A stretch of 64,000 nucleotides of DNA from Sphyrna mokarran. Taxonomy: Eukaryota. Where the stretch lies: the NCBI GenBank assembly GCA_024679065.1, contig JAGIQG010000040.1, forward strand, positions 9,486,001 to 9,550,000. Reading direction: 5' to 3'. Below the pieces are notes generated by a model, which was not told where the DNA came from, did no database searches, and saw only the letters and a program-made list of their open reading frames with translations. The first letter of the stretch is position 1. Each line of letters starts with the position of its first letter. This document shows, piece by piece, positions 32,906 to 64,000 of the stretch. Position numbers and translations under genes: made by a program.

Positions 32906-32914
32906 CAGCCAACG

Positions 32915-35195: not shown

Positions 35196-36035
35196 ATCAC
35201 CATGAAATCGCTGGTGTCTCAACAGGGCAGATGAAGTTCTGAATCTCTTCCCACACTGAGAACAAGTAAATGGTTTCTCCCCAGTGTGAACTCGCTGATG
35301 TGTCTGCAGGGGGAATAATCGAGTGAATCCCTTCCCACACTGACAGCAGGTGAATGGTCTCTCACCCGTGTGAACTCGCTGGTGTCTTTGCAGGCTGGAT
35401 GTGTGAATGAATCCTTTCCCACACTGAGAGCAGGTGAATGATCTCTCCTGAGTGTGAACTCGCTGGCGTGCCTGCAGATCAGACTAAGTGTATCCCTTCC
35501 CACATATGAGAGCAGGTGAATGGTTTGTTCCCAGTGTGAACTTGCTGGTGCGTCTGCAGTTTGATTAACTGAGTGAATCCCTTCCCACACACAGAGCAGG
35601 TGAACGGCCTCTCCCCAGTGTGATAGCGTCAATGAATTTCCAGCGGGGATGGGACTCTGAATCCCTTCCCACAGACTGTACATTTCCACAGTTTCTCCAT
35701 AGTTTGGGTTCCTTGCGACTCTCCAGGTTAAACAATCAGTTAAATCTCACACACAACACGGGTACAGTCTCCCCCCACTGTGAATGCTGCCATGTATTTT
35801 CAGGCTGTGTAACTAATTAAAGCTTTTTCCACAATCGTGGACTGGAACACTTTCAGTCAGGTATACATGTGTCTCGGTGCTTTTCCAGTTAAATTTATGC
35901 AAAGAAAAACGTCTGCAGCAGACAGAACAGGAAAGAATTTTTTCTTTTAGATTGAAAGGCCGATGGTATTCAGGTCAGATTTTGACATGATGTTCATTCA
36001 AGATTTCTGTCTGTGAAACCTCACCTTCTGATATC
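35196..36035 (-). pseudogene. C2H2 zinc-finger pseudogene, paralog of the 49288-50130 gene
   Basis: Acceptor at 36036-7. ATG at 35700 reads MEKLWKCTVCGKGFRVPSPLEIH*, with TGA at 35629-31 where the paralog has CGA; further frameshifts follow. Confidence 0.85.
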
Positions 36036-37767: not shown

Positions 37768-38637
37768 TCACACAGAGCAGGTGAATGGTCTTTCCCCAGT
37801 GTGAATTCGCTGGTGTGTCCGCAGTTTGGATGACTGACTGAATCCCTTCCCACGCTGAGAGCAGGTGAACGGCCTCTCCCCCGTGTGAACTCGCTGATGC
37901 GCCTGCAGATGGAATGACTGAGTGAATCCCTTTCCGCATTGAGAGCAGATGAATGGCCTCTCCCCAGTGTGAACTCGCTGGTGTGTCTTCAAATGGAATG
38001 ACTGAGTGAATCCCTTCCCGCACACAGAACAGGTGAATGGTCTCTCCCCAGTGTGAATTCGCTGGTGTCTCCGCAGTTCAGATGACTGAATGAATCCCTT
38101 CCCACACTGAGAGCAGGTGAATGGCCTCTTCCCCGTGTGAGTTCGCTGGTGTATCTGCAGATGGGATGACTGATAGAATCCCTTCCCGCATTGAGAGCAG
38201 GTGAACGGCTTCTCCCCAGTGTGAACTCGCTGGTGCGCCTGCAGATTGGATGACTGATTGAATCCCTTCCCGCATTGAGAGCAGGTGAACGGTCTCTCCC
38301 CGGTGTGAACACGTGTGTGTGCCCGCAGATTGGACGGACAAGCAAATCCCTTTCCACACTGAGAGCAGGTGAACGGCCTCTCCCCGGTGTGAATGCGCTC
38401 ATGGGCCTGCAGGTTGGAAGATTGAGCGAACCTCTTCCCACACTGAGAACAGATAAATGGCCTTTCCCCAGTGTGAACTCGCTGGTGTGACTGCAAGCTG
38501 GATAACTGTGTGAATCCCTTCCCACACTGAGAGCAGGTGAATGGTCTCTCCCCAGTGTGGCTGCGCCGATGAGCATCCAGCAGAGAGGGGGCTTTATATC
38601 TCTTTCCACAGTCCGCACATGTCCATGATTTCTCCAT
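37768..38637 (-). CDS. Finger-only C2H2 zinc-finger protein (9 canonical fingers, one C>R finger, 11th truncated by frameshift)
   Basis: ORF 37768-38673; Kozak-like cccATGg at 38637; TGERP linkers; exon acceptor ccttttacAG at 38958-9. Confidence 0.8.
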
Positions 38638-40264
38638 GGGGCAGGTGTCCTTGCCTCTCTCTTGGGTGGACAATCAGTTGAAGCCTCGTCCACGCACTCA
38701 ATACATGTACATTCTCTCCCCACTGTGAATGGTGTGATATTTATTCAGTCAGTATACTGGAACGTTCTCACTCGTGTAGCAGTGTATGATGCTTTTCCAG
38801 TCACGTTGACATTTGAAATCTTTTCAAATCGACAGACCAGACAACCATTTCTCCTTCCAGATTCAAAGTCCAAGGGTATTCAGGTCCCAAGGAATATGAC
38901 TCTGTCTGATCTAGACCTGACATTGAGATTTCAGCCTGTGATTCCTCTTTCAATATCCTGTAAAAGGAGTTTACAAAAGTTATCAATGTCAGTACAGTAT
39001 AGAAATTCAGAACAGACAATTATAGTCTCTGTGGAACATTCTTTCTTATTTCAGTCCCAAAAAGCTGAAATCTCTATCCCACACATTCCTTCCATTCTCA
39101 CTCTGCTGTATCTAATATTCACCCTCCCAGTTTCTCCTGACGGTGCTGATTCAGGCTGATTGATAGATCCATGCTCACTGCTTCCTGTCCAGCACACAGA
39201 GACCATAACAAATAGGAACTGCAGTTGGCCATTTAACCCATTGAATCTTTTAAACTATTCAATGGGATAATTCGTTCATCTACCTCAGCATCATTTTCCC
39301 CCACACTAAACCATATATGCCTTCATATCTTCAATATCTAGAAACTAATTTCTCTCTTGAACATAGTTGATGACTGAAGCTTCACTGTCCTCAGGAGTTG
39401 AGAATTCCAAAGCTTTCCCAAACCCTTGAGTGAAGAAATCCCCCACATCTTAGCTTTTGCTCTATCTTCTTGTCTGTTCCCCTGATCCTTGACAACATTC
39501 AGTTAAAAATCTGTCTAACTGGAATATATTCAATGATCTTCAGCCTTCACTGGTCCCTGTGGAACAGAAATCCAAAATACCAAGAACCCCCTGAGGGAAG
39601 AGATGTCTGGAAATATATAACGTAACTACAGTTCCATATTACAAGATATTCAGATCCTAAAGAATATATCTGTCTAGATGTGATGGTTGAGGTTTTCATC
39701 TGCGTTTCCTTGATCAATATCCTGTGAAATAAGTTTGCAAAAGTCAAGACAGTCAATATAGGACAGAAATCCAGAACGCACAATTCTAGTTCCATGTAAC
39801 ATTCTTTCCTATTTCATTCCCAAAAAGTTGTAAATCTCTAACCATATCTATGGATTCTATTTAAAAATGAAAGTAGAAGGGCACTTGAAGAAATAAACTT
39901 TCAGAAGAATGGGGATATCGAATGGGAATGGGGGGACTGGAATGTTATACAGAGAATTAGCATGGACTCGAGTTACCAAGTGGATTCTTTCTGTGCTGTA
40001 ATGACTTTATGACTGGAAACGTATAGCATTGCTACAGTGTTATATTACAATGTAAGAAATAATAAATGTATTTTATTACAGAAACATAAATAATATATCT
40101 AATCTGGATATCATATAACAACACTAGCCATATCTCGGTCCTTTATTAATGTACTGTCCCCTTAAATGTCAGCCATCTCTTAGAGAAAACAGCCCTTTAA
40201 TTGTGAACATTAGGAAAAAGACCATCCTTTTAGACAGACATAAATGTGTCAAGCCGAGGGAGCA

Positions 40265-40750
40265 AAGGATGTTTACCAGGCTGATTCAGGGAATCGCAGC
40301 ATTGGTGTATGAGGAGAGACTGACAAGGTTAGGATTGTTTTCATTGAGTTCAAATGAAAGAGGGGGGCGGGGTCTCATACAGACTTACAAAATTCTCAGA
40401 GGTCAAGACAGGATAGATGCAGGGAGGATGTTGTCGATGGAATACAGAACCTGGGGTCACAATCTGAGCATTCAAGGTAGACCATTTAGGACAGAGGGTG
40501 GAGACATTTTTTCATCCAAAGAGTAATGACACTGTGCAGTTTATTACCACAGGAAGTAGTTGATGCCAAAATATTGACTGTATTCAAGAGGCGGCTGCAT
40601 ATAGCAGTTGGGGCGAATGGGATCAAAGGTTATGGGGGAAAAGCACAGTTAAGCTATTGGGTTAGATGATCAGCCATAATTGTAATGAATGGCGGAGTAG
40701 GCTCGAAGGATTAAATGGCCTCCTTCTGCTCCTAACTTCCATGTTTCTAT
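40265..40750 (+). mobile_element. CR1 3' fragment in a ZNF intron (mirror at about 61430-61910)
   Basis: MFTRLIQG..YEERLTRLGLFSL plus a CR1 tail. Confidence 0.8.
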
Positions 40751-40920
40751 ATCAATGTCATTAAGAGAGAGAGAGAGAGAGGAAAAGAGACCTGGGCCAA
40801 TCCCAGAGTCTGCAGCCTCCCTGGATTCACTTCCTTTCATTTCAGCTGCTGGATGTCCCCAATTTCCCCCAGAATGGGAAAAGAAATGGAAAGGTGCAGA
40901 AAAGAAAGTGTTTTACTCAC

Positions 40921-41564
40921 AGATATTGACAACAGGAAGAAGTTTGAGTCTGTCTGAAGCTTAATCTTCATTCAGAGAGAGAGCAGCAGCAGCCTTGCTG
41001 GATGGGAATGAGCCTCTGAACAAGCTCATTGTCCACTAGCGCATTCAGACAATAGGGGAGCTCTGATTGGCTAGAGGGGGCAGTGTCCTTCCCGTCTTTC
41101 AGCCTTTCCCATTGGTCAGGGCCTCAGCAAAAAAGTCAGGGAGGGGACAGGCAGCCCTGCACATGCGCAGCTTCCCCTCTCTCTTGAACATGCGCAGTCC
41201 CGGTCCGGCGGGGGGAGGGGGAGATCACCGAGCGGCTTCTCGCTCTGGGCGGAGCCGCCAGCCGCTTGTCTGGAAACCTTGGCTCGAGGAGGGGGAGGGG
41301 AACAATGGGTGGAGGCGGGGCTCCCGGGAGGGGGAGGGGAACAATGGGCGGGGGCGGGGCTCCTGGGAGGGGGAGGGGAACAATGGGCGGAGGAAGGGAA
41401 ACAATGGGCGGGGGCGGGGCTCTTGGCGACGTCACCGCAGAACTCGGAGACGTCATCGCAGAGCGGAGTGATTGGCTAATCTGGGCAGCACTCCATTATG
41501 ACGTCACAATACGGAAGTTGTCGAATGAGTTTCAGACTCAGATTTGCTCCTGTCTCTGATATCT
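40921..41564. promoter_or_regulatory. Bidirectional CpG promoter with divergent non-coding first exons (left arm)
   Basis: Outward-facing donors ATCT|GTGAGT (minus at 40920, plus at 41565); CCAAT boxes; ACATGCGCAG (NRF1-like) twice; perfect CRE TGACGTCA at 41499-41506; ETS CGGAAGT; a 4-unit GC-box/AACAATGG minisatellite. Confidence 0.7.
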
Positions 41565-42200
41565 GTGAGTAAAACACTTTCTTTACTGCCCCTTTCCATT
41601 TCTATTCTCATCCTGGGGGAAACTGGGGACCTGCAGCAACTGAAGGGCAAGGAAGTGAGTCCAGGGAAACTGCAGATTCTGGAAAGGTTGGCCCAGGTCT
41701 CTCTCTCTCTCTTAAAGACACTGACATCCTTTGCTTCCTCAGCTTGATACGTTGATTTGTTTGGCTAAAAGGATGGTCACTTTCCTAATGTTCACAATTA
41801 AAGGGGTGGTTTGCCCAGGAGATAGAAACTAGAAGCAGGAGTAGGCCATTCAGTCCTTTGCGTTTACTCCACCATTCATTATGATCATGGATGATCATCA
41901 ATTTCGATATTCTGATCCCCCCTCCGCCCCCTCCCCATCTCCTTTGATCCCCTGAACCTCAGGATTTATTCTTGAAATCATGCAGTATTTTGGCCTCAAC
42001 TACTTTCTGTGGTAGTGAATTCTACACATTCACCACTCTTTGGGTGAAGACATCTCTTCTCATTTTATTTCTAAAAGGTTTACCCCTTATCTTCAAACTT
42101 TGATCCGTGGTTCTGGACTCACCCAATATCAGGAACATTGGGAGATGGCTGACATTTAAGGAGACAGTAAATATAGAACAGAGATAAATCTAATGCTGTT

Positions 42201-42555
42201 ACATAGAACATAGAACATTACATCGCAGAACAGGCCCTTCGGCCTTCGATGTTGCACCGACCAATTAGGAACAAGCAGTGACCCTCTAACCTAAACCATT
42301 CCCCTTTCATCCATAAACTTATCTACTAACCTCTTAAACGCCACCAAACTTGGCGCATCTACAACTGACACAGGCAAGGCATTCCATACCCTTACCACCC
42401 TCTGGGTAAAGAACCTACCTCCGACATCTGTCCTAAAACCACCACCCCTTAATTTAAAGCTATGTCCCCTCGTGCTAGCTTTCTCCATCCTAGGAAAAAG
42501 GCTATCACTGTCCACCCTATCTAAACCTCTAATCATCTTATATGTTTCAATAAGG
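42201..42555 (-). mobile_element. Left-arm-specific CR1 3' insertion
   Basis: The mirror site at about 59745-59755 is empty (GCTGTACATGGTACAG); the insert has a (TTCTATG)n tail. Confidence 0.85.
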
Positions 42556-43159
42556 TGGTACAGGTTAGATATACAATAATGGTTCTGTGATAAAATACAT
42601 TTATTAGTTCTAGCCTTGTAATATACCAATGCAACTACATTATAAACTTCCAGTCAGAGTCATTACCACATAGGCGGAGTCCATTCAGCAACTCGAGTCC
42701 ATGGCGATTCTCTGGAGGACAATACAGTCAATCCCACTCTGCTTCTATAATCTCTTCTCCCTACAAGTTTATTTCCTTCAGATGTCTAACCCAATTTATT
42801 TGAAATTATTCTTCTCCACTTCAACCACTGGTGTAATTTTCTGATTATGCCCACTTGCTGTCTAAATAAAGTTCTTCCTTGCACATGCCCCGCCCCCCCC
42901 GCCCCCACTCGATCTCTGATTAAAAGGTACAGTACTCTCTATCAAACATTTTCTATACAATTAATTGTGCATCTGGCGAGATATATGTACATTTACTGAA
43001 TAAAACGTTTGGGTGTCTGACTCCAGAGCCTTGTATTGATAGATTCGCATGACTCACTCATTCATTAGAATTGAGAGGATGAATATTAGATTCAGCAGAG
43101 TGAGAATGGTGGGAGAGTGTCTGACATGGAGATTTTCAGATTTTGGGATTTTTAAAATT

Positions 43160-43420
43160 TAATCGTGTCACAAGTAGGCTTACATTAACTCTGCAATGAA
43201 GTTACTGCGGAAATCCCCTAGTTGCCACACTGAGGTACATTGAGTGAGAATTTAGTATGGCCAGTGCAGTTAACCAGCATGTCTTTCGGACTGTGGCAGG
43301 AAACCTGAGAAGGAAATCCATGCAGATACAAGGAGAATGTGCAGTCTCTGGACAGACGGTGATCCAAGCTGGAATCAAAGCCAGATCCCTGGCGTTGTGA
43401 GAGAGCAACACACTGTGCCA
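43160..43420 (-). mobile_element. HE1/V-type SINE (mirror at about 58905-59150)
   Basis: tggcacagtg head, gggatctggctttgattccagcttgg B-box region, and core. Confidence 0.7.
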
Positions 43421-43829
43421 AATAAGGGAGGAAAGAATGCTCTGTAGAAATTTGAATTGTCTGTTTTGAATTTCTATTCTGTTCTGCCAGAAATGACTTT
43501 TGTAAACCTTTTTACAGGATATCAGAAGGTGAGGATTTACAGACCGAAATTTTGAATGAAATATCACATCAACATTTGACAGAGTCACTCAATTCATTGG
43601 GAGCTGACTATCATCAGTCTTTGAATCTCGAAGGAGAAATGTTTGTCTGTTTTGACTGATACAGAAGATTTTAAACATCAGTCTGACTGGAAAAGCACCG
43701 AAAACACATGCACATCTCAGTGAGAGTGTTTCAGCTTTAATTAGTTACACAATTTTCCAAAACCCTTCGGAACTGGGAAAGACACTACACGCGTTCTCTG
43801 CGTGTGGACACCTCAGTTGATTCTTGAAT

Positions 43830-44423
43830 ATGGAGAGACACAAGGACACCTGTACCATGGAAAAACCATGGAAATGTGCGGAATGTGGGAAGGGCTTCAT
43901 TACCCCATCAAGCCTGGAAAGTCATCGACGCATTCACACAGGGGAGAGACCGTTTGCTTGCTCTGACTGTGGGAAGGGCTTCACTCAGTTATCCCATCTG
44001 TGGACACACCAGCGAGTTCACACAGGGGAGAGGCCTTTTATCTGCATTGACTGTGGGAAGGGATTCACTCAGTCATCCAACCTGCTCGGACACCAGCGAG
44101 TTCACACTGGAGAGAGGCCATTCATCTGCACTGAGTGTGGAAAGGGCTTCAGAGATTCATCCACTCTGCAGAAACACCAGAGAGTACACACTGGGGAAAG
44201 ACCATTCAGCTGCTCTGATTGTGGGAAGCGATTCCGAGATTCCTCCACCCTGGTGAGACACCATCAATTTCATACCGGGGAGAGACCGTTCATCTGCTCT
44301 GACTGTGGGAAGGGATTCACTCAGTTATCCACCTTGCAGACACACCAGCGAGTTCACACCAGGGAAAGCCGTTCACCTGCTGTCAGTGTGGGAAGGGATT
44401 CACTCGGTCAACACTCCTGCTGA
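43830..44423 (+). CDS. C2H2 zinc-finger protein, 6 fingers (7th lost by a 1-nt deletion)
   Basis: Acceptor tttttacAG at 43516-7; [16 protein letters not shown] start. Reads agggaaagccg versus agggagaggccg in the mirror copy. Confidence 0.75.
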
Positions 44424-44859
44424 GACATCAGCGAGTTCACAATTCCTTCCGTGGGTTGGATTGTGCTGTTAATCACATCCAAGACTGATCCATGTCCATT
44501 CTGACAGTTGGTGAAATGGGGGAGGGTCGGAGGGTTTCTTTCTGCTGGACTGGCCAATCTCCCAACTTTGCTTCCAGTGGGTCGATGCTCTTTGAGCCAG
44601 GGTGAGCACATTCCCATGAAAATGATCTACTTAAGCCAATGAAAGACATTTATGATACTTGGTTGTAAATAATGTGTTTCCCCCTACTACATGCAAGCTT
44701 AAAATAAATGCAAAAAGAGCTAAAAGAAATGCTGCTGTCTAGCAGCATCTGTGGAAAAAATATCTTGGAGCAAAAGGCAAAGGGAGAGGTATGAGTTGTG
44801 CGAATAAATACAGCATTGATCCAGAGTAAGTTTAATGGCTGAATAAAGGACAGCTCTCC

Positions 44860-45120
44860 CTGTATCTCTCCAGTTAAGGCAATCAGCTGAAGCCTGATTC
44901 ATATACATGTGGATGGTGTCTCCCTGCTGTGAATGGTGCAATGTTTTTTTTTCAGGATGGGTAAGCTGTTAAACCTCTTTTCCTAGTCAGTGCACTCGGG
45001 TATGTTGAAGGAGAATTTAGTATGGCCAGTGCAATTAGCCAGCATGTCTGTCGGACTGTGGTAGGAAATCTGGTTGTGCTTGTGTGTGTGTTAGTACTTC
45101 CCAGTCACACAAATGTTTAG
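44860..45120 (-). pseudogene. Relic of a ZNF coding-exon 5' region (mirror at about 57200-57460)
   Basis: Aligns to 50155-50330 (aatcag.tgaa..ctgtgaatg.tgc.atg.ttttcagg..tcagtgca..ttcccagtcacac). No fingers remain. Confidence 0.55.
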
Positions 45121-46979
45121 AAGGGAAAAAAATTGAAAAGGAAGAATTTGTAGGGCTGTGGGGAAAAAGCAGAGCAGTTGGATGAATCACAGAGTCCTTT
45201 CAAAGAGATAGCAGGGACATGAAGAGCTGAATGGTCTCCTCCTGCAGCCTGTCAATCTCAGCTCCTGCTTTTATGCAGGTTAAAAGGGCCAAATTTCAGT
45301 GCAGCCTCTTCACTGTATATGTATTTAAAGAGACAGGTTTCTCTTTAGCTGAATGACTGATAGCAATTTGTTGAAGGTCCTTTTCCCACTCAGTTCTCCA
45401 GCACCTTTCTGTCTCGCTATTAATCCGATGCCCAGGACAGCTTCCCAACTGGGGCACAGACCCTATTATTCTCAACTAAATTCAGCACTCAGCTCTGTCA
45501 CCCAGCTGTCATTGACAGGAGCAATAGAGAAACAGAAAAGTGTCCCAGGTTCAAATGGGAAGTCAAAACTTGTGGCTTTAAATGAACTGTTAAGATCAAC
45601 AATTTAAAAAATTGTTTAAATTAAAGAGTCACATGACAAAACTTAAAGTTTATGGCATTTATTCCAACAAACTGGAAGAAACAATGATTAAACATTTTTT
45701 TTGTAGGGAACATTGCCCTTAAACTTTAAAATTGAACTTTGCCTTTTGCTCTTAACACAATCAAATATCTCAGTCAATGGTTATATTTTACGCTGTCTTG
45801 GAATGTTGACACTCAATTCTCAAAGATTTTTCACTCCCGAGGGTTTATTTCCATTGTTTTCCTTTCCCAGTCTTGCAACATTTAATCCCAGACTGTCTTC
45901 ACAGTGACAATACACCTGGACATTTTCTCAGTAACACAAGCAAGGCAAATCTTCCAGCCTTGTTTCACAATCCTCAGGAATTTATGACCAACATTTGATA
46001 GAGGAGCACAAGTAGGCCATTTGGCCCCTCTGAGTCGAAGGAGGCCATTTGGACACTCTGAGTCTGCTCCTCCATTTATTTAGATCATGGCTGATCTGTT
46101 TATGTTAAGTTCCTCATATTCTAGTTCCAGATCCGATATTTTTGATTTCCTTATGCAACAAAAGTTGGTGTAAAGGCAAAATTCTGCTGTTGAGGGAATC
46201 TGAGAGAAAAACACAAAATGCTGGATAATCTCAGCAAGTCTGACAGCCTCTGTAGAGAGAGAATAGAGACAACATTTCAAGTCAGGGTGACCCTTTGTCC
46301 AAAATGAAGACAAGGAAAATCAGACAAAATTCATACTGTGAGGATCAAGAATTGGGAAGCAACCGATTAAACCTGCACCACACTCAATGCATTTGTATCA
46401 TTTCTTAAATAGAAGACAAAGCTGCAGCCAATATTCAAGATACAGACTCAGCAATGCCCCGTATAACTGAAGCAGAACAACTTCTATGTTCAATTTCTCT
46501 CATAATAAAGGATTGCATTCCATTTGTAAGAACTTTGATTAATTTGAACTAAGATTTAGGGGGTTCTCTTGTGTATAATAACCTCCCCAATTGTAAATCA
46601 CACCAGGTTCCAGTGTCTTAACCATATGACAAGAAAGAACACTTTAAAAGGTGAATTCAGAAACTTTATTAACCATTAAAAATGTAACAAGTCAGAAAGT
46701 TAAAAAGCAAAGTATTGATTAACAGTTAACAGAGAAAGCTTCACTTTAATGATTGAATAGACTTCTCTCCATCTCTCTCAAACCAGGACATGAAGTGACA
46801 ACTCTGAAAACATGGATAACTTATAAAACCAACAGCTCTCAACATCTGTCTGTAAACATATCTTCCTCGTCCTCTCTGTACCAAATTGCTTCTCAAAACC
46901 ACTTTTTTATACTTTAAAAATTTCAAAAGTCCATCTTAGCAATTCCCATAAATCTGGTGAGTTTCTGGTGATTTAAAAA

Positions 46980-47345
46980 CACATCGTTAGTGTACGCTTG
47001 ACCTGGACCATTTGATGGGCAACACAACAGCTCAGTGACTATCGCTGTGCTGTGCAGATACATGGATTTGGGCATGTGTCTGTGGGAATTTGCGCATTCT
47101 CCCCGTGCTTGCGTGGGTTTTCTCCGAGCGCTCCGGTTTCCTCCCACATCCCAAAGATGTGCTCTTAGGCTAATTGGCAAAACAAATTCTCCCTAAATTG
47201 TTTCAAATTTGGTTTTTAATCCATAGATCTATAAACATGGACAGGGATTGCGGGTAGAGGTGGGAACATCGGGGTGGCGGCGCGGGCTCGTTGGGTCGAA
47301 GGGCCTGTTTCCCGTGCTGTTTTGTTCTGTGTTCTAAATCTAATT
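46980..47345 (+). mobile_element. 5'-truncated copy of the 3' UTR of the 30.7-32.2 kb LINE family (mirror at about 54860-55225)
   Basis: Aligns to 31845-32230; absent from the paralogous site at about 37040. Confidence 0.75.
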
Positions 47346-47704
47346 CCTACTTAAAGGATTAACTTTTCCACAGAACCTAAAGGAGTGGGGAGTGAGCAGC
47401 AAAAACTTGGCACACAATTACATCACTTCACACAAGTTTAAAACAAAACAAATGATTTTAAACTTCATCTATTAATTTTTTTTTGTTATATTCCTCAACC
47501 GATTAAATTTGATCAGTTTTTGTTGGGGATGGGTAATTTCTATTCTTTATAAACTGGTTCACTCATTTTGTTTATTCTCCTTGGGCTGAGAGAATCAGAA
47601 CACAGACTTTATCATCCTTCTCCTTTTTTCTCTTCTCCTACCACTCTCTCTGTTTTGCGGGAGGGTCATGGGGATTCCAATCAGACCTGATCATTTTATC
47701 ACAC

Positions 47705-47882
47705 AAGTAAAATACTGCGGATACTGGAATCTGAAACAAAAAAACAGAAAATGCTGGAAAATCTCAGCAGGTCTGACAGCATCTGTGGAGAGAGAATAGA
47801 GCCAATGTTTCGAGTCTGGATAACCCTTCATTAGCGCTCTTACAAAGTGTCAATCAGATTCAAAAGGTTGGCTCTATCCTCT
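47705..47882 (-). mobile_element. Penelope-like pLTR remnant with an inverted partial copy (mirror at 54323-54500)
   Basis: The mirror reads CTAATGAAGGGTTATCCAGACTCGAAACATT (degenerate hammerhead core). Local hairpin arms at 47791-47828 and 47843-47882. Confidence 0.6.
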
Positions 47883-49287
47883 AATCATTTTAATCAATAA
47901 GTTTCTTGCTTTTAGTTTCCAAATGGCAGATAAGTGACTGTCTGATCCCCACTCAAGCTCTGATTTTTCACTGGCCATGATGGGGTAAGATAATAACCAT
48001 TCGGATCTACTCTCAGAGGGTCCGCTTTTCAGTCCAGTGCTACTTGGAGAATACCATCACTTCACTGACTATCAGATCACAAATCAGTCACAGTTTTTAT
48101 CACAAGTTTAGGATAAATTAATTTAAACAATGCCTGAGAACGCACCTTGATTTCTTAACCAACTACTTACCACTGTTTGTTGATTTGTCAGACTCCCCTT
48201 TTTACAGATTCAGAAATATCATCTGCTTAACACCAGCTGGTCCTTGGATAAGTTTAATTCCAACTCATTCCCAGTAAATATTCTCACTGGGTCCTCCCTG
48301 GAGGCTCTGCTAAGCAGCGTTAATGGTCTGTGATTGCAGAAACTGAGCAGTCACAGGAATGTGGTCAAGACAGTCCAGTCTCATAATGCTTCACATTCAA
48401 TCTGCAGTCCTTCAATTATAACAGAATATGTGGCTGTGTGTAGCTGCCTCGGCCATGGTCAACCCCAACACTGCCTTCCTGAACTGCTACCATGCCTGTA
48501 AATACATCCACAGTGCTATTAGGGAGTGATTTCCAGATACATATTCCAGAATTTCACTAACTGTAGGTGGATACCAGATTGATATATTCCATTCAACCAC
48601 ATCCAAGCTGCATTACCCAATTTCATTATTGTCCAGGACAATATATTCACAATATCTTTAAAACAGAAATTCAACATTCCCATTTTATTTCAGGTACTAA
48701 CATATTCTGTTGGTTTGTTCTTTATTGTCAAAGTCAGGCTGGGGTTGTTCCTCTTGGAGCAAAGGAGGTTGAGGGGAGATTTGCTATAGAGTTGGACAAG
48801 ATTCTGACATAGTTAGATAAGGTGGACAAAAAAAAGCTGTTCCCATTAGCTGACAGGACAAGGGCGAGGGGATCACAGGTTTATGCTTTTAGGATGTTGC
48901 GGGGGGCAGGCGGGGGGATGTGAAGAAGAATATTTTGATGTGGCGAATGGTAATGATCTGGAACTTGCTGCCTACGAGCGTAAAGTGGAGGCAATAAATC
49001 ATTGCAAAGGAAATTGGATGGGCATTTAGGCAGTGTTGCAAATAGAAATGGGACTAAATATATCTTAACTTTCAATTGCCCTGTCAGTCTTTTATCCTTC
49101 TGAAATTTAAAACCAGGTATTTGCAACAAGATTCAAAGATCATCCGTCCACTGGAGATAAAATCATGAGTCCTGCCAGTCCAACACAAAGAAACCCTTTC
49201 CTTTGACCAACTGTGAGAATGAATAAAATGTAGTCTTGGCAGTAATTGAGAGCTGAACCAGTAACAGCAGAATCCAAACCTCTGGAA

Positions 49288-50130
49288 TCACTTGTGTATT
49301 AGTTGGTGTCTCAGCAGTTGGGATGAAGCTCTGAAACTCTTCTCGCATTGAGAGCAGGTGAACGGCCGCTCCCCAGTGTGAACTTGCTGGTGTCTCCGCA
49401 GGGTGGATGACTGAGTGAATCTCTTCCCACACTGAGCGCAGGTGAATAGTTTTTCCCCAGTGTGAACTCGCTGGTGTGTCTGCAGATTGGATAAGTCAGT
49501 GAATCCCTTCCCACACTGAGGACAGATGAACGGCCTCTCCCCAGTGTGAACTCGTTGGTGTGCCTGCAGGTGGGATAATTGAGTGAATCCCTTCCCACAC
49601 TGAGAGCAAATGAATAGCTTCTCGCCAGTATGAACTTGCTGGTGTCTCCGCAGAGCAGATGACTGAGTGAATCCAATCCCACACTGAGAGCAGGTGAATG
49701 GTCTTTCCCCGGTGTGAACTCGCTGGTGTCCCCGCAGGCTGGATAAGTCAGTGTATCCCTTCCCACACACAGAGCAGGTAAACGGCCTCTCCCCAGTGTG
49801 AACTCGCTGGTGTGTTTGCAGGTGGGATGTCTGAGTAAATCCCTTCCCACACTGAGAGCAGGTGAATGGTCTCTCCCCAGTATGAACACGCTGGTGTGTC
49901 TGCAGGCTGGATAACCGAGTGAATCCGTCCCCACACTGAGAGCAAAAGAAGGGCCTTTCCCCAATGTGAACTCGCTGGTGTGTCCGCAGATTCGATAACT
50001 GACTGAATCCCTTGCTGCAGACACAGCAAGTGAACGGTCTCTCCCCAGTGTGACTGCGTCGATGAGCTTCTAGCTGAGATGGAGAAACGAATCTCTTCCC
50101 ACAGTCCCCACATTTCCATGGTTTCTCCAT
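49288..50130 (-). CDS. Finger-only C2H2 zinc-finger protein, 280 aa, 10 fingers (left copy)
   Basis: Intact ORF MEKPWKC..LIHK*, accATGg start, acceptor ccttttacAG at 50485-6. Confidence 0.9.
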
Positions 50131-52074
50131 GGTGCAAGTATCCTAGTGACTCTCCAGGTTAAACAATCAGTTAAATCTCACACAGATCATGGGGACAGTC
50201 TCTCTCCGCTGTGAATGCTGCGATGTGTTTTCAGGCTGTGTAACTGGTTGAAGCTCTTCCCATACTCAGTGCATTGGAAAACTCTCATTCGGGTGTATCT
50301 GTGCCTTGGTGCTTTTCCAGTCACACATATGATTAAAGTTTTTGAAGCAGATAGAATAGAGAAACATTTCTCCTTCGAGAATTAAAATCGATAAATTCAG
50401 ATCCTGATGAATTGAGTGAGGATGTCAGATGTTGATGTGACATTAGGTTTGAGATTTGTCTGTAAATCCTCCCCTTCCAATATCCTGTAAAAGGAATTTT
50501 AAAAAGTGGTCAATATCAGTACAGGATAGAAATTCAGAACAATTGTAGTTTTTGGAACATTCTTTCCCCTTTCATTACCAAAAGCTATAAATCTCCATCC
50601 CAGACACTCTCATTCTATTCTCTACTCTAAATTCATTCTCCCAGTTTCTCCTGAAGATGCTGATTGAGGCTGATTTTCAGATCCGTGCTCACTGCTTCCT
50701 GTCTGGGACACAGAGAGCTGAAATTCTCCATGCAGGATGCGAGCCCAACAGAAATATGGCTGTATTCCTCGACTAAAAATGTTTTAAATGGATTGGTTCA
50801 GTTAGTGAAGATACAGGAGGTTGCAACTGATGATGATCTTGAACTTGCTGCCTATGAGGGTGGTCAGAGGGTTTTACACCATGTAAAGAGGCCCTCCGGC
50901 CCATCATGCTTGCACTGGCCACTCTTGATGTGCAACCTTGTCTGCTGGGATACATCCCATCTGGATCTGAGGCTTTATACAATTTAACGCCCAGTTAAAA
51001 CCGTTAATATCTCCTCCCTCTCAACGTTAAGTTATTGAAGTGATTCACAAAGGGTATGTTTTCTCTGGAAGCGTGTAAAAGACAAAAATTTTCACTGTGC
51101 TTGCATGTGCATAATAATCAAATTAAAATGTATCAATGAAAGAGGGAGGGCTTTGTTGAATCACTTCAATGAACTTAACGTTGAGAGGGAGGAGATATTA
51201 ACGGTTTTAACTGGGCGTTAAATTGTATAAAGCCTCAGATCCAGATGGGATGTATCCCAGCAGACAAGGTTGCACATCAAGAGTGGCCAGTGCAAGCATG
51301 ATGGGCCGGAGGGCCTCTTTACATGGTGTAAAACCCTCTGACCACCCTCATAGGCAGCAAGTTCAAGATCATCATCAGTTGCAACCTCCTGTATCTTCAC
51401 TAACTGAACCAATCCATTTAAAACATTTTTAGTCGAGGAATACAGCCATATTTCTGTTGGGCTCGCATCCTGCATGGAGAATTTCAGCTCTCTGTGTCCC
51501 AGACAGGAAGCAGTGAGCACGGATCTGAAAATCAGCCTCAATCAGCATCTTCAGGAGAAACTGGGAGAATGAATTTAGAGTAGAGAATAGAATGAGAGTG
51601 TCTGGGATGGAGATTTATAGCTTTTGGTAATGAAAGGGGAAAGAATGTTCCAAAAACTACAATTGTTCTGAATTTCTATCCTGTACTGATATTGACCACT
51701 TTTTAAAATTCCTTTTACAGGATATTGGAAGGGGAGGATTTACAGACAAATCTCAAACCTAATGTCACATCAACATCTGACATCCTCACTCAATTCATCA
51801 GGATCTGAATTTATCGATTTTAATTCTCGAAGGAGAAATGTTTCTCTATTCTATCTGCTTCAAAAACTTTAATCATATGTGTGACTGGAAAAGCACCAAG
51901 GCACAGATACACCCGAATGAGAGTTTTCCAATGCACTGAGTATGGGAAGAGCTTCAACCAGTTACACAGCCTGAAAACACATCGCAGCATTCACAGCGGA
52001 GAGAGACTGTCCCCATGATCTGTGTGAGATTTAACTGATTGTTTAACCTGGAGAGTCACTAGGATACTTGCACC

Positions 52075-56964: not shown

Positions 56965-57060
56965 AAAAGCAGTAAAAGTAAAAAACAAAAAAAAAAAAAA
57001 AAAATGGAAAAACAAAAGAAAAAAAAAAAAAAAAAAAAAAAGAACAAAAAAAAAAAGCAG
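56965..57060 (+). mobile_element. Right-arm-specific poly(A)-only insertion with an AAAAGCAG target-site duplication
   Basis: The left arm (about 45265-45275) has a single AAAAGCAG. The right arm has two, flanking about 80 nt of A-rich sequence. Confidence 0.75.
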
Positions 57061-57836: not shown

Positions 57837-58496
57837 TCAGTCTTGGATGTGATTAACAGCACAATCCAACCCATGGAAGGAATTGTGAACTCGCTGATGT
57901 CTCAGCAGGAGTGTTGACCGAGTGAATCCCTTCTCACACTGAGAGCAGGTGAACGGCCTCTCCCTGGTGTGAACTCGCTGGTGTGTCTGCAAGGTGGATA
58001 ACTGAGTGAATCCCTTCCCACAGTCAGAGCAGATGAACGGTCTCTCCCCGGTATGAAATTGATGGTGTCTCACCAGGGTGGAGGAATCTCGGAATCGCTT
58101 CCCACAATCAGAGCAGCTGAACAGCCTTTTCCCAGTGTGTACTCTCTGGTGTTTCTGCAGGGTGGATGAATCTCTGAAGCCCTTTCCACACTCAGTGCAG
58201 ATGAATGGCCTCTCTCCAGTGTGAACTCGTTGGTGTCCGAGCAGGTTGGATGACTGAGTGAATCCCTTCCCACAGTCAATGCAGATAAAAGGCCTCTCCC
58301 CCGTGTGAACTCGCTGGTGTGTCCGCAGATGGGATAACTGAGTGAAGCCCTTCCCACAGTCAGAGCAAGCAAATGGTCTCTCCCCTGTGTGAATGCGTCG
58401 ATGACTTTCCAGGCTTGATGGGGTAATGAAGCTCTTCCCACATTCCGCACATTTCCAAGGTTTTTCCATGGTACAGGTGTCCTTGTGTCTCTCCAT
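57837..58496 (-). CDS. C2H2 zinc-finger protein, 7 fingers (mirror of 43830-44423)
   Basis: Open ORF 57837-58502 (221 aa from TTG); acceptor at about 58809-10. Confidence 0.85.
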   Translation of the reverse strand: MERHKDTCTMEKPWKCAECGKSFITPSSLESHRRIHTGERPFACSDCGKGFTQLSHLRTHQRVHTGERPFICIDCGKGFTQSSNLLGHQRVHTGERPFICTECGKGFRDSSTLQKHQRVHTGKRLFSCSDCGKRFRDSSTLVRHHQFHTGERPFICSDCGKGFTQLSTLQTHQRVHTRERPFTCSQCEKGFTRSTLLLRHQRVHNSFHGLDCAVNHIQD

Positions 58497-60397
58497 ATTC
58501 AAGAATCAACTGAGGTGTCCACGCGCAGAGAACGTGTGTAGCGTCTTTCCCAGTTCTGAAGGGTTTTGGAAAATTGTGTAACTAATTAAAGCTGAAACAC
58601 TCTCACTGAGATGTGCATGTGTTCTCAGTGCTTTTCCAGTCAGACTGATGTTTAAAATCTTCTGTAGCAGTCAAAACAGACAAACATTTCTCCTTCGAGA
58701 TTCAAAGACTGATGATATTCAGCTCCCAATGAATTGAGTGACTCTGTCAGACATTGATGTGATGTTTCATTCAAGATTTCGGTCTGTAAATCCTCACCTT
58801 CTGATATCCTGTAAAAGGGTTTACAAAAGTCATTTCTGGCAGAACAGGATAGAAATTCAAAACAGACAATTCAAATTTCTACAGAGCATTCTTTCCTCCC
58901 TTATTTGGCACAGTGTGTTGCTCTCTCACAGCACCAGGGATCTGGCTTTGATTCCAGCTTGGATCACCATCTGCACATTCTCCTTGTGTCTGCATGGATT
59001 TCCTTCTCAGGTTTCCTGCCACAGTCTGAAAGATGTGCTGGTTAACTGCACTGGCCATACTAAATTCTCCCTCAATGTACCTGAGTGCGGCAACTAGGGG
59101 ATTTTCGCAGTAACTTCATTGCAGTGTTAATGCAAGCCTACTTGTGACACGATTAAATTTTAAAAATCCCAAAATCTGAAAATCTCCATGTCAGACTCTC
59201 CCACCATTCTCACTCTGCTGAATCCAATATTCATCTCTCAATTCTAATGAATGAGTGAGTCATGCGAATCTATCAATACAATGCTCTGGAGTCAGACACC
59301 CAAACGTTTTATTCAGTAAATGTACATATATCTCACAGATGCACAATTAATTGTATAGAAAATGTTTGACAGAGAGTACTGTACCTTTTAATCAGAGATT
59401 GAGTTGGGGGGGGGGCATGTGCAAGGAAGGACTTTATTTAGACAACAAGTGGCCATAATCAGAAAATCACACCAGTGGTTGAAGCGCAGAAAAATAATTT
59501 CAAATAAATTGGGTGAGACATCTGAAGGAAATAAACTTGTAGAGAAAAGAGATTATAGAAGCAGAGTGGGATTGACTGTAGTGTCCTCCAGAGAATCGCC
59601 ATGGACTCGAGTTGCTGAATAGACTCCGCCTATGCCGTAATGACTCTGACTGGAAATTTATAATGTAGTTACAGTGGTATATTACAAGACTAGCACTAAT
59701 AAATGTATTTTATCACAGAACCATTATTGTACATCTAATCTGTACCATGTACAGCATTAGATTTATCTCTGTTCTATATTTACTGTCTCCTTAAATGTCA
59801 GCCATCTCCCAATGTTCCCGATATTGGGTGAGTCCAGAACTAGGGATCAAAGTTTGAAGATAAGGGGTAAACCTTTTAGAAATAAAATGAGAAGAGATGT
59901 CTTCATCCAGAGAGTGATGAATGTGTGCAATTCACTACCACAAAAAGTAGTGGAGGCCAAAATACTGTGTGATTTCAAGAATAAACTAGATAGAGCTCTT
60001 GAGGTTCAAGGGATCAAAGGAGATGGGGAGGGGGCGGAGGGGGGATCAGAATATGAAATTGATGATCATCCATGATCATAATGAATGGTGCAGTAAACGC
60101 AAAGGACTGAACGGCCTACTCCTGCTTCTAGTTTCTATCTCCTGGGCAAACCGCCCCTTTAATTGTGAACATTAGGAAAGTGACCATCCTTTTAGCCAAA
60201 CAAATCAACGTATCAAGCTGAGGAAGCAAAGGATGTCAGTGTCTTTAAGAGAGAGAGAGAGAGACCTGGGCCAACCTTTCCAGAGTCTGCAGTTTCCCTG
60301 GACTCACTTCCTTGCCCTTCAGTTGCTGCAGGTCCCCAGTTTCCCCCAGGATGAGAATAGAAATGGAAAGGGAGAGTAAAGAAACTGTTTTACTCAC

Positions 60398-61262
60398 AGA
60401 TATCAGAGACAGGAGCAAGTCTGAGTCTGAAACTCATTCGACAACTTCCGCATTGTGACGTCAAAATGGAGGGCTGACAGGATTAGCCAATCACTCTGCT
60501 CTGCGATGACGTCTCCGAGTTCTGCGGTGACGTCGCCAAGAGCTCCGCCCCCGCTCATTGTTTCCCTTCCTCCGCCCATTGTTCCCCTCCCGGGAGCCCC
60601 GTCCCCACCCATTGTTCCCTTCCCGGGAGCCCCGCCCCCGCCCCTTGTTCCCCTCCCCCTCCCGGGAGCCCCGCCCCACACCCATTGTTCCCTCCCGGGA
60701 AAAAATAAAAACGAAAAGTTCCCCGTCCCCACCCATTGTTCACTTCCGGGACCCCGCCCCCGCCCCTTGTTCCCCTCCCCCTCCGGGGCCCCGCCCCCCT
60801 CCATGTTCCCTTCCCGGGAGCCCCGCCCCCGCCCATTGTTCCCCTCCCCCTCCCGGGAGCCCCGCCCCCCCCATTGTTCCCCTCTCCCTCCTCGAGCCAA
60901 GGTTTCCAGACAAGCGGCTGGCGGCTCCGCCCAGAGCGAGAAGCCGCTCGGTGATCTTCCCCTCCCCCCCCGCCGGACCGGAACTGCGCATGTCCAAGGG
61001 GCAGGGGAAGCTGCGCATGTGCAGGGCTGCCTGTTCCCCCTCCCCGACTTTCTTGCTGAGGCCCTGACCAATGGGAAACGCTGAAAGACCGGAAGAACAC
61101 TGCCCCCTCTAGCCAATCAGAGCTCCCCCATTGTCTGAATGCGCCAGTGGACAATGAGTTTGTTCAGAGGTTCATTCCCATCCAGCAAGGCTGCTGCTGC
61201 TCTCTCTCTGAATGAAGATTAAGCTTCAGACAGACTCAAACTTCTTCCTGTTGTCAACATCT
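60398..61262. promoter_or_regulatory. Bidirectional CpG promoter, right-arm copy with an expanded minisatellite
   Basis: Donors at 60397 (minus) and 61263 (plus); CRE at 60456-63; about 10 repeat units. Confidence 0.7.
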
Positions 61263-63542
61263 GTGAGTAAAACACTTTCTTTTCTGCACCTTTCCATTTC
61301 TTTTCCCATTCTGGGGGAAACTGGGGACATCCAGCAGCTGAAATGAAAGGAAGTGAATCCAGGGAGGCTGCAGACTCTGGGATTGGCCCAGGTCTCTCTT
61401 CCTCTCTCTCTCTCTTAATGACATTGATACAGAAACATGGAAGTTAGGAGCAGAAGGAGGCCATTTAATCCTTCGAGCTTGCTCCGCCATTCATTACAAT
61501 TATGGCTGATCATCTAACCCAATAGCTTAACTGTGCTTTTCCCCCATAACCTTTGATCCCATTTGCCCCAAGTGCTATATGTAGCTGCCTCTTGAATACA
61601 GTCAATATTTTGGCATCAACTACTTCCTGTGGTAATAAATTGCACAGTGTCATTACTCTTTGGATGAAAAAATGTCTCCACCCTCTGTCCTAAATGGTCT
61701 ACCTTGAATGCTCAGATTGTGACCCCAGGTTCTGTATTCCATCGACAACATCCTCCCTGCATCTATCCTGTCTTGACCTCTGAGAATTTTGTAAGTCTGT
61801 ATGAGACCCCGCCCCCCTCTTTCATTTGAACTCAATGAAAACAATCCTAACCTTGTCAGTCTCTCCTCATACACCAATGCTACGATTCCCTGAATCAGCC
61901 TGGTAAACATCCTTCGCTCCCTCGGCTTGACACATTTATCTGTCTGTCTAAAAGGATTGTCTTTTTCCTAATGTTCACAATTAAAGGGCTGTTTTCTCTC
62001 TAAGAGATGGCTGACATTTAAGGGGACAGTGCATTAATATAAGACCAAGATATGGCTAGTGTTGTTCTATGATATCCAGATTAGATATATTATTTATGTT
62101 TCTGTAATAAAATACATTTATTATTTCTTACATTGCAATATAACACTAGCAATGCTATACGTTTCCAGTCATAAAGTCATTACAACACAGAAAGAATCCA
62201 CTTGGTAACTCTAGTCCATGCTAATTCTCTGTATAACATTCCAGTCCCCCCATTCCCACTCGATATCCCCATTCTTCTGAAAGTTTATTTCTTCAAGTGC
62301 CCTTCTACTTTCATTTTTAAATAGAATCCATAGATATGGTTAGAGTTTTACAACTTTTTGGGAATGAAATAGGAAAGAATGTTACATAGAAACTAGAATT
62401 GTCTGTTCTGGATTTCTGTCCTATATTGACTGTCTTGACTTTTGCAAACTTATTTCACAGGATATTGATCAAGGAAACGCAGATGAAAACCTCAACCATC
62501 ACATCTAGACAGATATATTCTTTAGGATCTGAATATCTTGTAATATGGAACTGTAGCTACGTTATATATTTCCAGACATCTCTTCCCTCAGGGGGTTATT
62601 GGTATTTTGGATTTCTGTTCCACAGGGACCAGTGAAGGCTGAAGATCATTGAATATATTCCAGTTAGACAGATTTTTAACTGAATGTTGTCAAGGATCAG
62701 GGGAACAGACAAGAAGATGGAGCAAAAGCTAAGATGTGGGGGATTTCTTCACTCAAGGGTTTGGGAAAGCTTTGGAATTCTCAAATCCTGAGGACAGTGA
62801 AGCTTCAGTCATCAACTATGTTCAAGAGAGAGATTGGTTTCTAGATATTGAAGATATGAAGGCATATGGTTTAGTGTGGGGGAAAATGATGCTGAGGTAG
62901 ATGAACGAATTATCCCATTGAATAGTTTAAAAGATTCAATGGGTTAAATGGCCAACTGCAGTTCCTATTTGTTATGGTCTCTGTGTGCTGGACAGGAAGC
63001 AGTGAGCATGGATCCATCAATCAGCCTGAATCAGCACCGTCAGGAGAAACTGGGAGGGTGAATATTAGATACAGCAGAGAGAGAATGGAAGGAATGTGTG
63101 GGATAGAGATTTCAGCTTTTTGGGACTGAAATAAGAAAGAATGTTCCACAGAGACTAGAATTGTCTGTTCTGAATTTCTATACTGTACTGACATTGATAA
63201 CTTTTGTAAACTCCTTTTACAGGATATTGAAAGAGGAATCACAGGCTGAAATCTCAATGTCAGGTCTAGATCAGACAGAGTCATATTCCTTGGGACCTGA
63301 ATACCCTTGGACTTTGAATCTGGAAGGAGAAATGGTTGTCTGGTCTGTCGATTTGAAAAGATTTCGAATGTCAACGTGACTGGAAAAGCATCATACACTG
63401 CTACACGAGTGAGAACGTTCCAGTATACTGACTGAATAAATATCACACCATTCACAGCTGGGAGAGAGTGTACATGTATTGAGTGCGTGGACGAGGCTTC
63501 AACTGATTGTCCACCCAAGAGAAAGGCAAGGACACCTGCCCC

Positions 63543-64000
63543 ATGGAGAAATCATGGACATGTGCGGACTGTGGAAAGAGATATAAAGCCCCTTCTCTGC
63601 TGGATGCTCATCGGCGCAGCCACACTGGGGAGAGACCATTCACCTGCTCTCAGTGTGGGAAGGGATTCACACAGTTATCCAGCCTGCAGTCACACCAGCG
63701 AGTTCACACCGGGGAAAGGCCATTTATCTGTTCTCAGTGTGGGAAGAGGTTCGCTCAATCTTCCAACCTGCAGGCCCATGAGCGCATTCACACCGGGGAG
63801 AGGCCGTTCACCTGCTCTCAGTGTGGAAAGGGATTTGCTTGTCCGTCCAATCTGCGGGCACACACACGTGTTCACACCGGGGAGAGACCGTTCACCTGCT
63901 CTCAATGCGGGAAGGGATTCAATCAGTCATCCAATCTGCAGGCGCACCAGCGAGTTCACACTGGGGAGAAGCCGTTCACCTGCTCTCAATGCGGGAAGGG
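63543..64000 (+). CDS. C2H2 zinc-finger protein, mirror of 37768-38637, truncated by the window end
   Basis: Acceptor at 63221-2, ATG at 63543 ([13 protein letters not shown]..), open to the window end. Confidence 0.85.

Follow-up and report, generated by a model that had tools for sequence, protein, structure and literature searches.

Fold-back has been described as a source of inverted duplications in which the spacer between the arms is single-copy (Hermetz et al., 2014, PMC3907307; reviewed in PMC9199198), and the cases described there are human: large rearrangements that carry terminal deletions and whose spacers mostly measure a few kb. In tandem gene clusters, head-to-head pairs make up 21% of linked duplication events in human, 16% in mouse and 13% in zebrafish (PMC3194840, Table 2), most inverted linked duplicates were concluded in that study to have been created inverted, and more than 25% of neighbouring pairs are non-parallel in PMC3283317. 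A literature search found no paper on the arrangement of shark zinc-finger (ZNF) clusters, and sharks are not mentioned in the main text of the study of KRAB-ZNF and cyprinid FiNZ-ZNF genes that we use for comparison (bioRxiv 10.1101/2022.11.29.518450).

In the window, by which we mean the whole 64,000-nucleotide stretch of Sphyrna mokarran DNA analysed here, we found two C2H2 zinc-finger paralogues, gene A (minus strand) and gene B (plus strand), that lie head to head with their splice donors 645 bp apart. Their inferred start sites fall between the donors and are hence divergent and less than 1 kb apart. As in the tandem clusters of PMC3194840 and PMC3283317, direct and inverted family copies adjoin; however, the shark inverted pair is less than 1 kb apart and is nested in a younger palindrome. 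The region between the genes can be compared with the bidirectional CpG-island promoters of PMC3082894: the genes diverge over less than 1 kb, and the putative promoter is GC-rich, has no TATA match and contains candidate NRF1-, ETS/GABPA- and CCAAT-like motifs. Unlike those promoters, it lies between paralogues with apparently homologous core promoters and has no YY1 match in its centre. The shark genes share with the KRAB-ZNF and FiNZ-ZNF genes of the preprint a short upstream exon followed by one finger-array exon, clustering, fast turnover and many broken copies, but no effector domain was found and the first exon is likely non-coding. The younger palindrome has multi-gene inverted arms around a spacer, as do the large palindromic segmental duplications of mouse chr12 (PMC13688818), but it is far smaller, its spacer measures about 100 bp and its identity changes in steps. 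Compared with the fold-back cases of PMC3907307, the core of this outer palindrome likewise consists of inverted arms that are identical and a short spacer that is single-copy, with a short inverted repeat at the spacer edges; the inner A/B pair likewise has inverted arms around a spacer of 400-580 bp, but shows no detectable edge microhomology, no sister relationship and no mirrored distal flank.

Anatomy of the head-to-head pair

The features of the two genes, with SINE-like as a putative repeat class and the NRF1-like, CCAAT, GC-box and CRE-like names as putative motif classes, are as follows.

37768..38637, minus: gene A coding region, a 289-aa ORF of tandem C2H2 fingers, 9 fitting the strict pattern; no effector domain seen
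38638..38957, minus: gene A exon 2, 5' part, decayed and finger-like with stops, likely UTR; acceptor 38,958/38,957
38958..40920, minus: gene A intron 1
39604..39850, minus: internal duplicate in the A intron, with a second acceptor (39,721) and about 70 nt of exon 2
40273..40748, plus: LINE 3' fragment in the A intron, antisense to A; absent from B
40921..41075, minus: gene A predicted first exon and core promoter
41076..41472, no strand: non-mirrored promoter centre with two NRF1-like motifs, a CCAAT box, GC boxes, CRE-like motifs and a 39-bp VNTR (41,288-41,393)
41473..41564, plus: gene B predicted core promoter and first exon, with CRE and ETS-like motifs; donor 41,564/41,565
41565..43517, plus: gene B intron 1, collinear with the A intron
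41824..42141, minus: LINE 3' fragment in the B intron, bounded by a 5-bp duplication; the site is empty in A
42200..42552, minus: 353-bp LINE 3' fragment, in the left outer arm only; 88% identity to a copy at 16,386-16,735
about 43151..43424, no strand: SINE-like repeat in the B intron, absent from A; dispersed copies within the window
43518..44440, plus: gene B exon 2, acceptor 43,518; a decayed 5' part, then an ORF from 43,830 with 6 intact fingers
44850..45149, minus: remnant G, the 5' part of another ZNF exon 2, ending just past the polyA-signal motifs of B

Pfam searches matched zf-C2H2 and zf-H2C2_2 in A, B, the right-arm copy B2 and the further finger exon C, with the tandem C2H2 array in one exon. 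No KRAB, SCAN or BTB domain was among the best 25 Pfam families listed per ORF, and a 51-aa open stretch of exon 2 had no Pfam match. Stops are present in the frames of exon 1 and of the 5' part of exon 2, and both segments are likely non-coding. In B exon 2, the loss of 1 bp near 44,365 puts finger 7 out of frame, whereas the right-arm copy has 7 fingers. A 17-nt donor motif occurs four times with 0-1 mismatch (40,920, 41,565, 60,397 and 61,263; chance expectation 0.25), and one further match has 3 mismatches. By exact look-up, 0 of 7 window proteins were present in the protein collection and no annotated copy of the locus was found; an Rfam scan of the window returned tRNAs only, at its left end.

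The initial annotation of this DNA held that the divergent first exons and their introns are homologous, and we found all eight motifs that it quoted once per strand and in mirror order. The exon-1 ends lie at 40,952 (minus) and 41,533 (plus), the donors at 40,920 and 41,565 and the last motif at 40,179 and 42,142. When the retro-insertions were taken out, the alignment of exon 1 plus intron scored 596 compared to 35.5 ± 4.1 for shuffles (0 of 100 reached 596), and the first-exon ends and introns, with 452 of 565 aligned sites identical, are collinear mirror homologues. Each intron also leads to a paralogous ZNF exon, as the annotation had it, with acceptors at 38,957 and 43,518. Thus, inverted homologous arms flank a single-copy spacer, with mirror homology running outward from 40,952/41,533; beyond the fingers, it ends at a 135-bp family motif 3' of them (69% over 136 columns). 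The A first exon is clearly homologous to B over its last 32 nt and weakly over 41,021-41,075, and the A first exon and promoter region has about 67 nt extra relative to B. The two introns were further said to carry different CR1 insertions: the insertions are independent later events at different sites, but CR1 is a presumed label, for which Pfam gave no hit. Three of them match the 3' end of a reverse-transcriptase-like ORF at 30,919-31,728 (47-56% at the amino-acid level), and the Atlas gave an RT-like lead only, with RVT_1 on 12% of a cluster.

Promoter centre and origin of the pair

The centre between A and B has a GC content of 57% and a CpG observed/expected ratio of 0.56 as compared to 0.36 for the window; raw motif counts are 2 NRF1-like, 1 ETS-like and 3 CCAAT, and neither TATA nor YY1 matches were present in the centre. 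Mirror symmetry of the 400-580 bp centre was absent, its self-inverted score being reached by 32 of 200 shuffles. The 645-bp interval is likely a short promoter region common to A and B. Homology between the two core promoters is weak (3-32 of 1000 shuffles); apparently, each gene has a homologous core promoter of its own, a weak signal that makes it more likely that the promoter was duplicated than created. The proposal that the first round of duplication created the head-to-head promoter is therefore not supported.

We propose that an ancestral unit with its core promoter underwent a single inverted duplication that would have placed A and B head to head, and that the whole pair was later copied into a larger inverted repeat; we give this sequence of events about an even chance. 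The old event could have been a hairpin fold-back or another template switch, either of which is compatible with the sequence. The genes are adjacent, their homology comes within 400-580 bp of the centre, and a single event would account for the split as well as for the orientation. This old one-step duplication is the simplest origin, with later inversion of an existing paralogue as a close rival. On this account, no split within the local set would be older than that of A and B (about 20-30% divergence), direct duplication on the A side would have given rise to C, D and G, and the 400-bp centre would give both genes orientation-independent sites (NRF1-like, CRE-like and GC boxes).

Of the six pairings among A, B, C and D, A with B is the least alike (71.1% of 912 sites; the others 71.6-76.5%). 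The best tree places B outside A, C and D (74/76, unsupported); the tree is a star, and a tree with A and B forced together is not rejected (AU p = 0.10). The B acceptor region is 79% identical to D, 77% to C and 69% to A. No measure tested groups A and B as sisters. The 3' flanks of A, C and D are alike in direct orientation at 76-82% (about 84% ungapped) and B is without this flank, which, together with the best tree, is as expected if B split first.

The exon-1/intron module is also found in gene models from other loci, which may be orthologues or paralogues and from which 4 weak matches of 14 (P0128, P0130, P0133 and P0135) were left out of the comparison. The B exon-2 peptide has 23-29 identical residues with all 8 outside models compared and 21 with A. 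In the shared intron, P0127 matches A at 15/18 and B at 14/19 pseudo-residues, while A matches B at 13/18. Intron similarity above that of any two random family members, on which the initial annotation made its inference depend, is not seen wherever it can be compared: A-B is the lowest of six pairs and P0127 is equally close. This comparison is not decisive, because an oldest A/B split would also give low identity. P0126 bridges the A and B forms of exon 1 and is spliced in the predicted phase (1/300 each). P0127 carries the A-side promoter part (0/300) and P0131 carries a B-type exon 1 (0/300 vs B2, 10/300 vs B), and in both models the segment in front is a third, E-type promoter rather than the other half, which fits two separate genes joined later. 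Matches of P0123 and P0136 are mainly to the E-type promoter, and P0134 and P0137 had no significant match among the 8 promoter/intron regions tested. A word-indexed search with the 51-aa exon-2 peptide gave no match among 10 candidates, and a profile search gave 2 named shark proteins, neither of which matches A/B exon 1 or intron.

Such a joining is possible, though we lean against it: the B unit would have been inverted, or inserted inverted, between breakpoints near 41,280 and 44,850 in an array (D, A, G, C) whose members lie on one strand, which would have put its promoter back to back with that of A. It would explain why A-B similarity is that of the family background, why B breaks a run of minus-strand copies and why remnant G is cut off shortly after the polyA motifs of B, likely at the distal breakpoint of the B unit; yet two separate events are needed, one breakpoint must have fallen no more than about 200 bp from either promoter, and re-inverting B would leave the fingers of G still missing. 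The two halves of the centre differ, a GC-rich VNTR lies at the presumed junction, and each half has an outside counterpart in its own sense: the A-side part (41,081-41,179) matches P0127 in A's sense. However, the ancestry of B's upstream part in B's sense is weakly backed: the VNTR matches the E unit at 67/1000 shuffles and is not among the best of 56 pairs, and when the B-side part was compared with other window promoters, 1 of 56 pairwise tests reached 0/500, a match to a double NRF1-like cassette of ambiguous orientation that loses significance after correction.

We found that A-B intron identity is about 86% over the first 296 sites from the donor and about 74% further out (Fisher p = 5e-6). 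Such a drop would follow if only the exon-1/5'-intron module had been duplicated inverted, or homogenised arm to arm, more recently and an older exon 2 then joined, but the drop is gradual and we consider this very improbable. In A, the shared module is followed immediately by an acceptor that resembles A most and B least (the internal duplicate is 74% identical to A and 60% to B), P0127 is as near to each copy in the donor-proximal segment as A is to B, and this segment is also slow between the outer arms (in B, 5/259 differences vs 61/1,317; Fisher p = 0.06). With an old inverted duplication, the donor-proximal intron would stay more alike through constraint. A chimera of a B-derived 5' module on a C-like exon was rejected as the main account, the duplicate acceptor in A being least like B.

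No inverted microhomology was detectable at the inner spacer edges, where the best alignment is weak (score 16) and the edges themselves are not fixable at 20-30% divergence. That A is a fold-back copy of B is not shown.

The outer palindrome

Both A and B recur in the other arm of a palindrome that is centred near 51,100 and runs on, to its true outer end, past the right edge of the window.

38204..46027, plus: left arm, diverged part, 98.4%, 95.7% and 91.5% identical in three strata; pairs with about 56,180-64,000
46028..51030, plus: perfect core, 0 substitutions in 5,003 sites vs 51,175-56,180
acceptor 50,484, ORF 50,130-49,288: ZNF exon C, inside the perfect core, 10 fingers
51033..51172, no strand: palindrome centre, an imperfect inverted repeat of about 20 bp (two 1-nt bulges) with a spacer of about 100 nt
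57837..60430, minus: right-arm copy B2, donor 60,397, acceptor 58,808, 219-aa ORF with 7 fingers
61231..64000, plus: right-arm copy A2, donor 61,263, acceptor 63,223; the ORF runs off the window

Since the A/B pair is present in both arms, it is older than the palindrome. Each arm had been described as an older inverted duplication in itself; the pair is indeed homologous, inverted and present in both arms, but it spans about 7 kb of an arm of at least 12.8 kb and is not the whole arm. A recent fold-back primed at the short imperfect inverted repeat (centre hairpin z = –7.8) would produce the 5-kb perfect core and would have separated exon C from its own first exon. This core appears to be the only clear fold-back signature of the locus and lies outside the A/B pair. 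Of the suggestion that the family expands by fold-back, the presence of inverted duplications at the locus is borne out, whereas a fold-back origin of A and B, the pair of lowest identity, is not supported. Direct-orientation duplication is at least as prominent at the locus as inverted duplication.

The perfect core may be real or may be a read or assembly artefact. A fold-back read or collapsed polishing could have joined haplotypes or paralogous copies in inverted orientation and so produced it, which we regard as somewhat improbable though still a serious prospect. Identity jumps abruptly from 91.5% to 100%, the right-arm VNTR contains irregular low-complexity sequence, and the spacer is below 200 bp, the range that flags foldback artefact reads in PMC12870357. 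However, the differences between the arms resemble real mutation (185 transitions and 81 transversions), and each arm has a private insertion (353 bp in the left arm; an 88-bp poly-T with a flanking duplication in the right arm). The spacer is a fragment of a genomic repeat with two other copies in the window, which also counts against an artefact, as does the divergence of 1.6-8.5%, which is high for two haplotypes. The question of an artefact in the core is separate from the choice among the three accounts of the A/B pair.

Rearrangement of the zinc-finger cluster

An inverted paralogue pair copied within a larger repeat is ordinary for such gene clusters. The locus is a well-preserved case of lineage-specific zinc-finger cluster rearrangement, with direct and inverted duplications side by side that can be dated by nested identity steps and retro-insertions. 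Its anatomy also helps annotation: the first exon is likely non-coding, the likely 5' UTR holds decayed fingers, and some finger exons are orphans. It would carry greater weight if germ-line DNA truly contains the 5-kb perfect palindrome with its 100-bp spacer; an artefactual core would instead be a caution about gene counts in ZNF clusters. The weight would likewise be greater if the head-to-head cassette is a genome-wide unit of expansion. Such growth of the shark ZNF subfamily, by repeated inverted duplication of the cassette, is in our estimate unlikely; it would comprise three nested generations (divergence about 25%, 2-8% and 0%), in the last of which a fold-back was rescued by a switch into the older inverted arm, and the promoter-less exons C and D would be alternative last exons of shared first exons. 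If so, the same process may also have left a second pair of divergent, homologous family promoters, which lie at 29.6 and 33.1 kb.

Mirror homology of the A/B pair

We counted ten C2H2 finger arrays or fragments in the window, and the main family members, including the head-to-head genes A and B, are placed as follows.

Acceptors of the finger genes and decayed 5' parts of exon 2
38,957, minus strand: acceptor of gene A
43,518, plus strand: acceptor of gene B
50,484, minus strand: acceptor of C
51,721, plus strand: acceptor of the mirror copy of C
36,035, minus strand: acceptor of D
25,006, minus strand: acceptor of E
20,607, plus strand: acceptor of F
38,638–38,957: decayed exon-2 5' part
43,518–43,856: decayed exon-2 5' part
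50,131–50,484: decayed exon-2 5' part
35,701–36,035: decayed exon-2 5' part
20,607–20,933: decayed exon-2 5' part

All eight motifs that the initial annotation had quoted in mirror order around A and B are present. The distance from the A donor to the B donor is 645 bp, and the 17-nt donor motif (≤1 mismatch) occurs in four copies, two in each arm of the outer palindrome, a larger inverted repeat whose right arm carries the copies A2 and B2. The A/B homology is collinear: blocks of 73–83% identity start with the final 32 nt of exon 1, cross the intron and reach both acceptors. With insertions removed, 452 of 565 sites are identical and the alignment scores 596 as compared to 35.5 ± 4.1 in shuffles (0 of 100 reach it).

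The two introns had also been said to hold different CR1 insertions. We found that LINE fragments do lie at different sites in the A and B introns, antisense to each host gene, and that their sequences align with the end of an RT-like ORF at 30,919–31,728; they may be CR1, a name that Pfam did not confirm and for which the Atlas match is a lead only. One fragment has a 5-bp flanking duplication, and A holds the matching empty site. The fragments inserted later than the A/B split.

Gene A encodes 289 aa, including 9 strict fingers; B has 6 fingers followed by a 1-bp deletion that is absent from B2, and the predicted DNA-contact residues of A differ from those of B. Stops occur in exon 1 and in the first 320–340 nt of exon 2, and both parts are likely untranslated. 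In five paralogues, exon 2 carries a decayed finger pair as its 5' part, and the stops in it fall at what look like shared positions; translation therefore seems to start at the same downstream ATG context across the family.

The predicted promoter centre

The 580 bp that separate the blocks of clear homology are not self-inverted (score reached by 32 of 200 shuffles). A weak match in a core-promoter-like stretch, 41,021–41,075 with 41,473–41,532, lengthens the mirror by ~55 nt (3–32 of 1000 shuffles over four copy pairs), and beyond it ~400 bp of the centre is left unmatched, so each gene seems to bring its own putative core promoter and to share the middle. The centre has 57% GC and a CpG o/e of 0.56, and it matches NRF1-like, ETS-like, CCAAT, CRE-like and GC-box motifs; we found no TATA match there. 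Bidirectional promoters are enriched in GABPA, NRF1, NF-Y and YY1, according to PMC3082894.

The promoter VNTR of the right arm (60,575–60,891) is ~218 bp longer and includes a T-rich stretch of irregular sequence that may reflect poor consensus. Two CpG-rich promoters of the family, homologous to each other, at 29,330–29,850 (minus) and 32,900–33,340 (plus), diverge ~3.2 kb apart (homology 1/200 and 6/1000 shuffles); by eye, the plus-strand promoter is without the donor seen in its minus-strand partner, and no exon lies nearby in its sense.

Kinship of A and B within the family

The initial annotation had proposed that a fold-back duplication produced A and B and created their promoter, and that similarity at the family background would speak against this. 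Across the 3' intron, the 5' part of exon 2, the first three fingers and the 3' motif, A–B identity is 71.1% (912 sites), the lowest of the six pairs among A to D (the other five, 71.6–76.5%). This is the outcome that would speak against the proposal, but it is not decisive, because low identity is equally expected if A and B separated basally. The tree is star-like, and its best topology, (F,(B,(A,(C,D)))), is unsupported, and an A+B grouping is not rejected (AU p = 0.10; 0.16 and 0.36 with shorter alignments). No test that we ran favours A and B as sisters.

In the acceptor region, B is 79% identical to D, 77% to C and 69% to A, and a duplicate acceptor in A's intron most resembles A (74%) and least resembles B (60%). 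Downstream of the fingers, A–B homology is limited to one 136-column motif that is present in all copies. A (over 36,160–37,704) and D (over 31,829–35,200) share sequence with C's flank in direct orientation, and B sits within the minus-strand series, adjoining a truncated minus-strand exon-2 remnant at 44,850. A direct-orientation duplication at ~84% with shuffled block order (31,829–37,704 versus 46,115–49,291) connects the 3' flanking sequences of A, C and D.

When we searched with 51 aa encoded by an open stretch in exon 2 of B2, we obtained 14 unnamed gene models from outside the window, which look like ab initio models. We compared 10 of them in 88 comparisons, so values of 1/300 are leads only. 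P0127 joins an A-side promoter part (0/300 shuffles), the shared intron segment (0/300) and exon 2, and its upstream region matches E's promoter (0/300), not the B half of the centre. P0131 has a B-type exon 1 (0/300 versus B2, 10/300 versus B) behind an E-type segment, and in P0126 the splice from exon 1 to exon 2 keeps the predicted phase (1/300, a lead given the 88 comparisons). By these matches, the exon-1/intron module is a trait of the subfamily, or an orthologue's, and not private to the A/B pair. Two named relatives were found, in Scyliorhinus torazame and Heterodontus francisci; an exact look-up of 7 window proteins in the protein collection found none of them.

One result favours a special A–B link: the donor-proximal 296 sites are ~86% identical as compared to ~74% further out (p = 5e-6). 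However, identity falls gradually away from the donor, P0127 is equally close in the shared intron segment (pseudo-residues: P0127–A 15/18, P0127–B 14/19, A–B 13/18), and B's donor-proximal stretch shows 1.9% change between the outer arms versus 4.6% (p = 0.06), which makes constraint the likelier cause.

The outer palindrome and a proposed history of the block

The arms of the outer palindrome pair inward from 38,204/64,000 in strata of 98.4%, 95.7% and 91.5% identity, followed by 0 substitutions in 5,003 sites. The differences are rich in transitions (185:81), and each arm has one private insertion. The right arm alone holds an inserted poly-T tract of 88 bp (56,974–57,061), flanked by a short duplication; the tract looks like a severely truncated retro-insertion.

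At the palindrome centre, a 20-bp imperfect inverted repeat surrounds ~100 nt of genomic repeat fragment. The perfect core (46,028–56,180) has 5 kb per arm and a 100-bp spacer, and the arms are only 91.5% identical at its edge. PMC3907307 describes this anatomy for fold-back duplications, and PMC12870357 for foldback artefact reads. The core is a recent fold-back or a read/assembly artefact, the artefact being a real but lesser possibility.

Because the fold point lies inside C's intron, C and its mirror, both intact 10-finger ORFs, have no first exon of their own. The finger exons of C (49,288–50,716), the mirror (51,489–52,917) and D (35,200–36,168) have acceptors but no own first exon. In sense, they lie downstream of donors that belong to B2, B and A, for which they could be alternative last exons.

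In the most economical history, which we rate at about even chances, B would have parted from the A/C/D line through an old inverted duplication; the A side would then have undergone direct duplications, the entire block would have been copied by a large inverted duplication, and at the centre of that palindrome a fold-back (or artefact) would have arisen recently. Somewhat less probable is that an existing paralogue was inverted later. ZNF expansions are widespread, and gene clusters often contain paralogues in inverted and head-to-head arrangement (PMC3194840, PMC3283317). The passages of PMC8455134 found by search added nothing on ZNF clusters, and our search, largely without subscription papers, found no account of this arrangement in sharks.

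Elsewhere in the window, an intact 273-aa receptor ORF (11,881–12,702) belongs to a large shark-expanded family (2,019 matches); its best named relatives are shark proteins, mostly named 'GPR139-like', the closest from Mustelus asterias (85% identity), which points to a carcharhiniform shark as the likely source of the window. At the left end, where bases 1–365 are duplicated at 89%, 442–1,456 (partly repeated at 3,496–3,844) holds three tRNA genes by ARAGORN and two by Rfam. Related 21/42-bp tandem repeats lie at 4,608–5,150 and 7,355–7,559 in opposite composition contexts, the second inside a 171-aa open frame, and a further promoter-like, CpG-rich region at 8,300–9,120 matches NRF1-like and ETS-like motifs.
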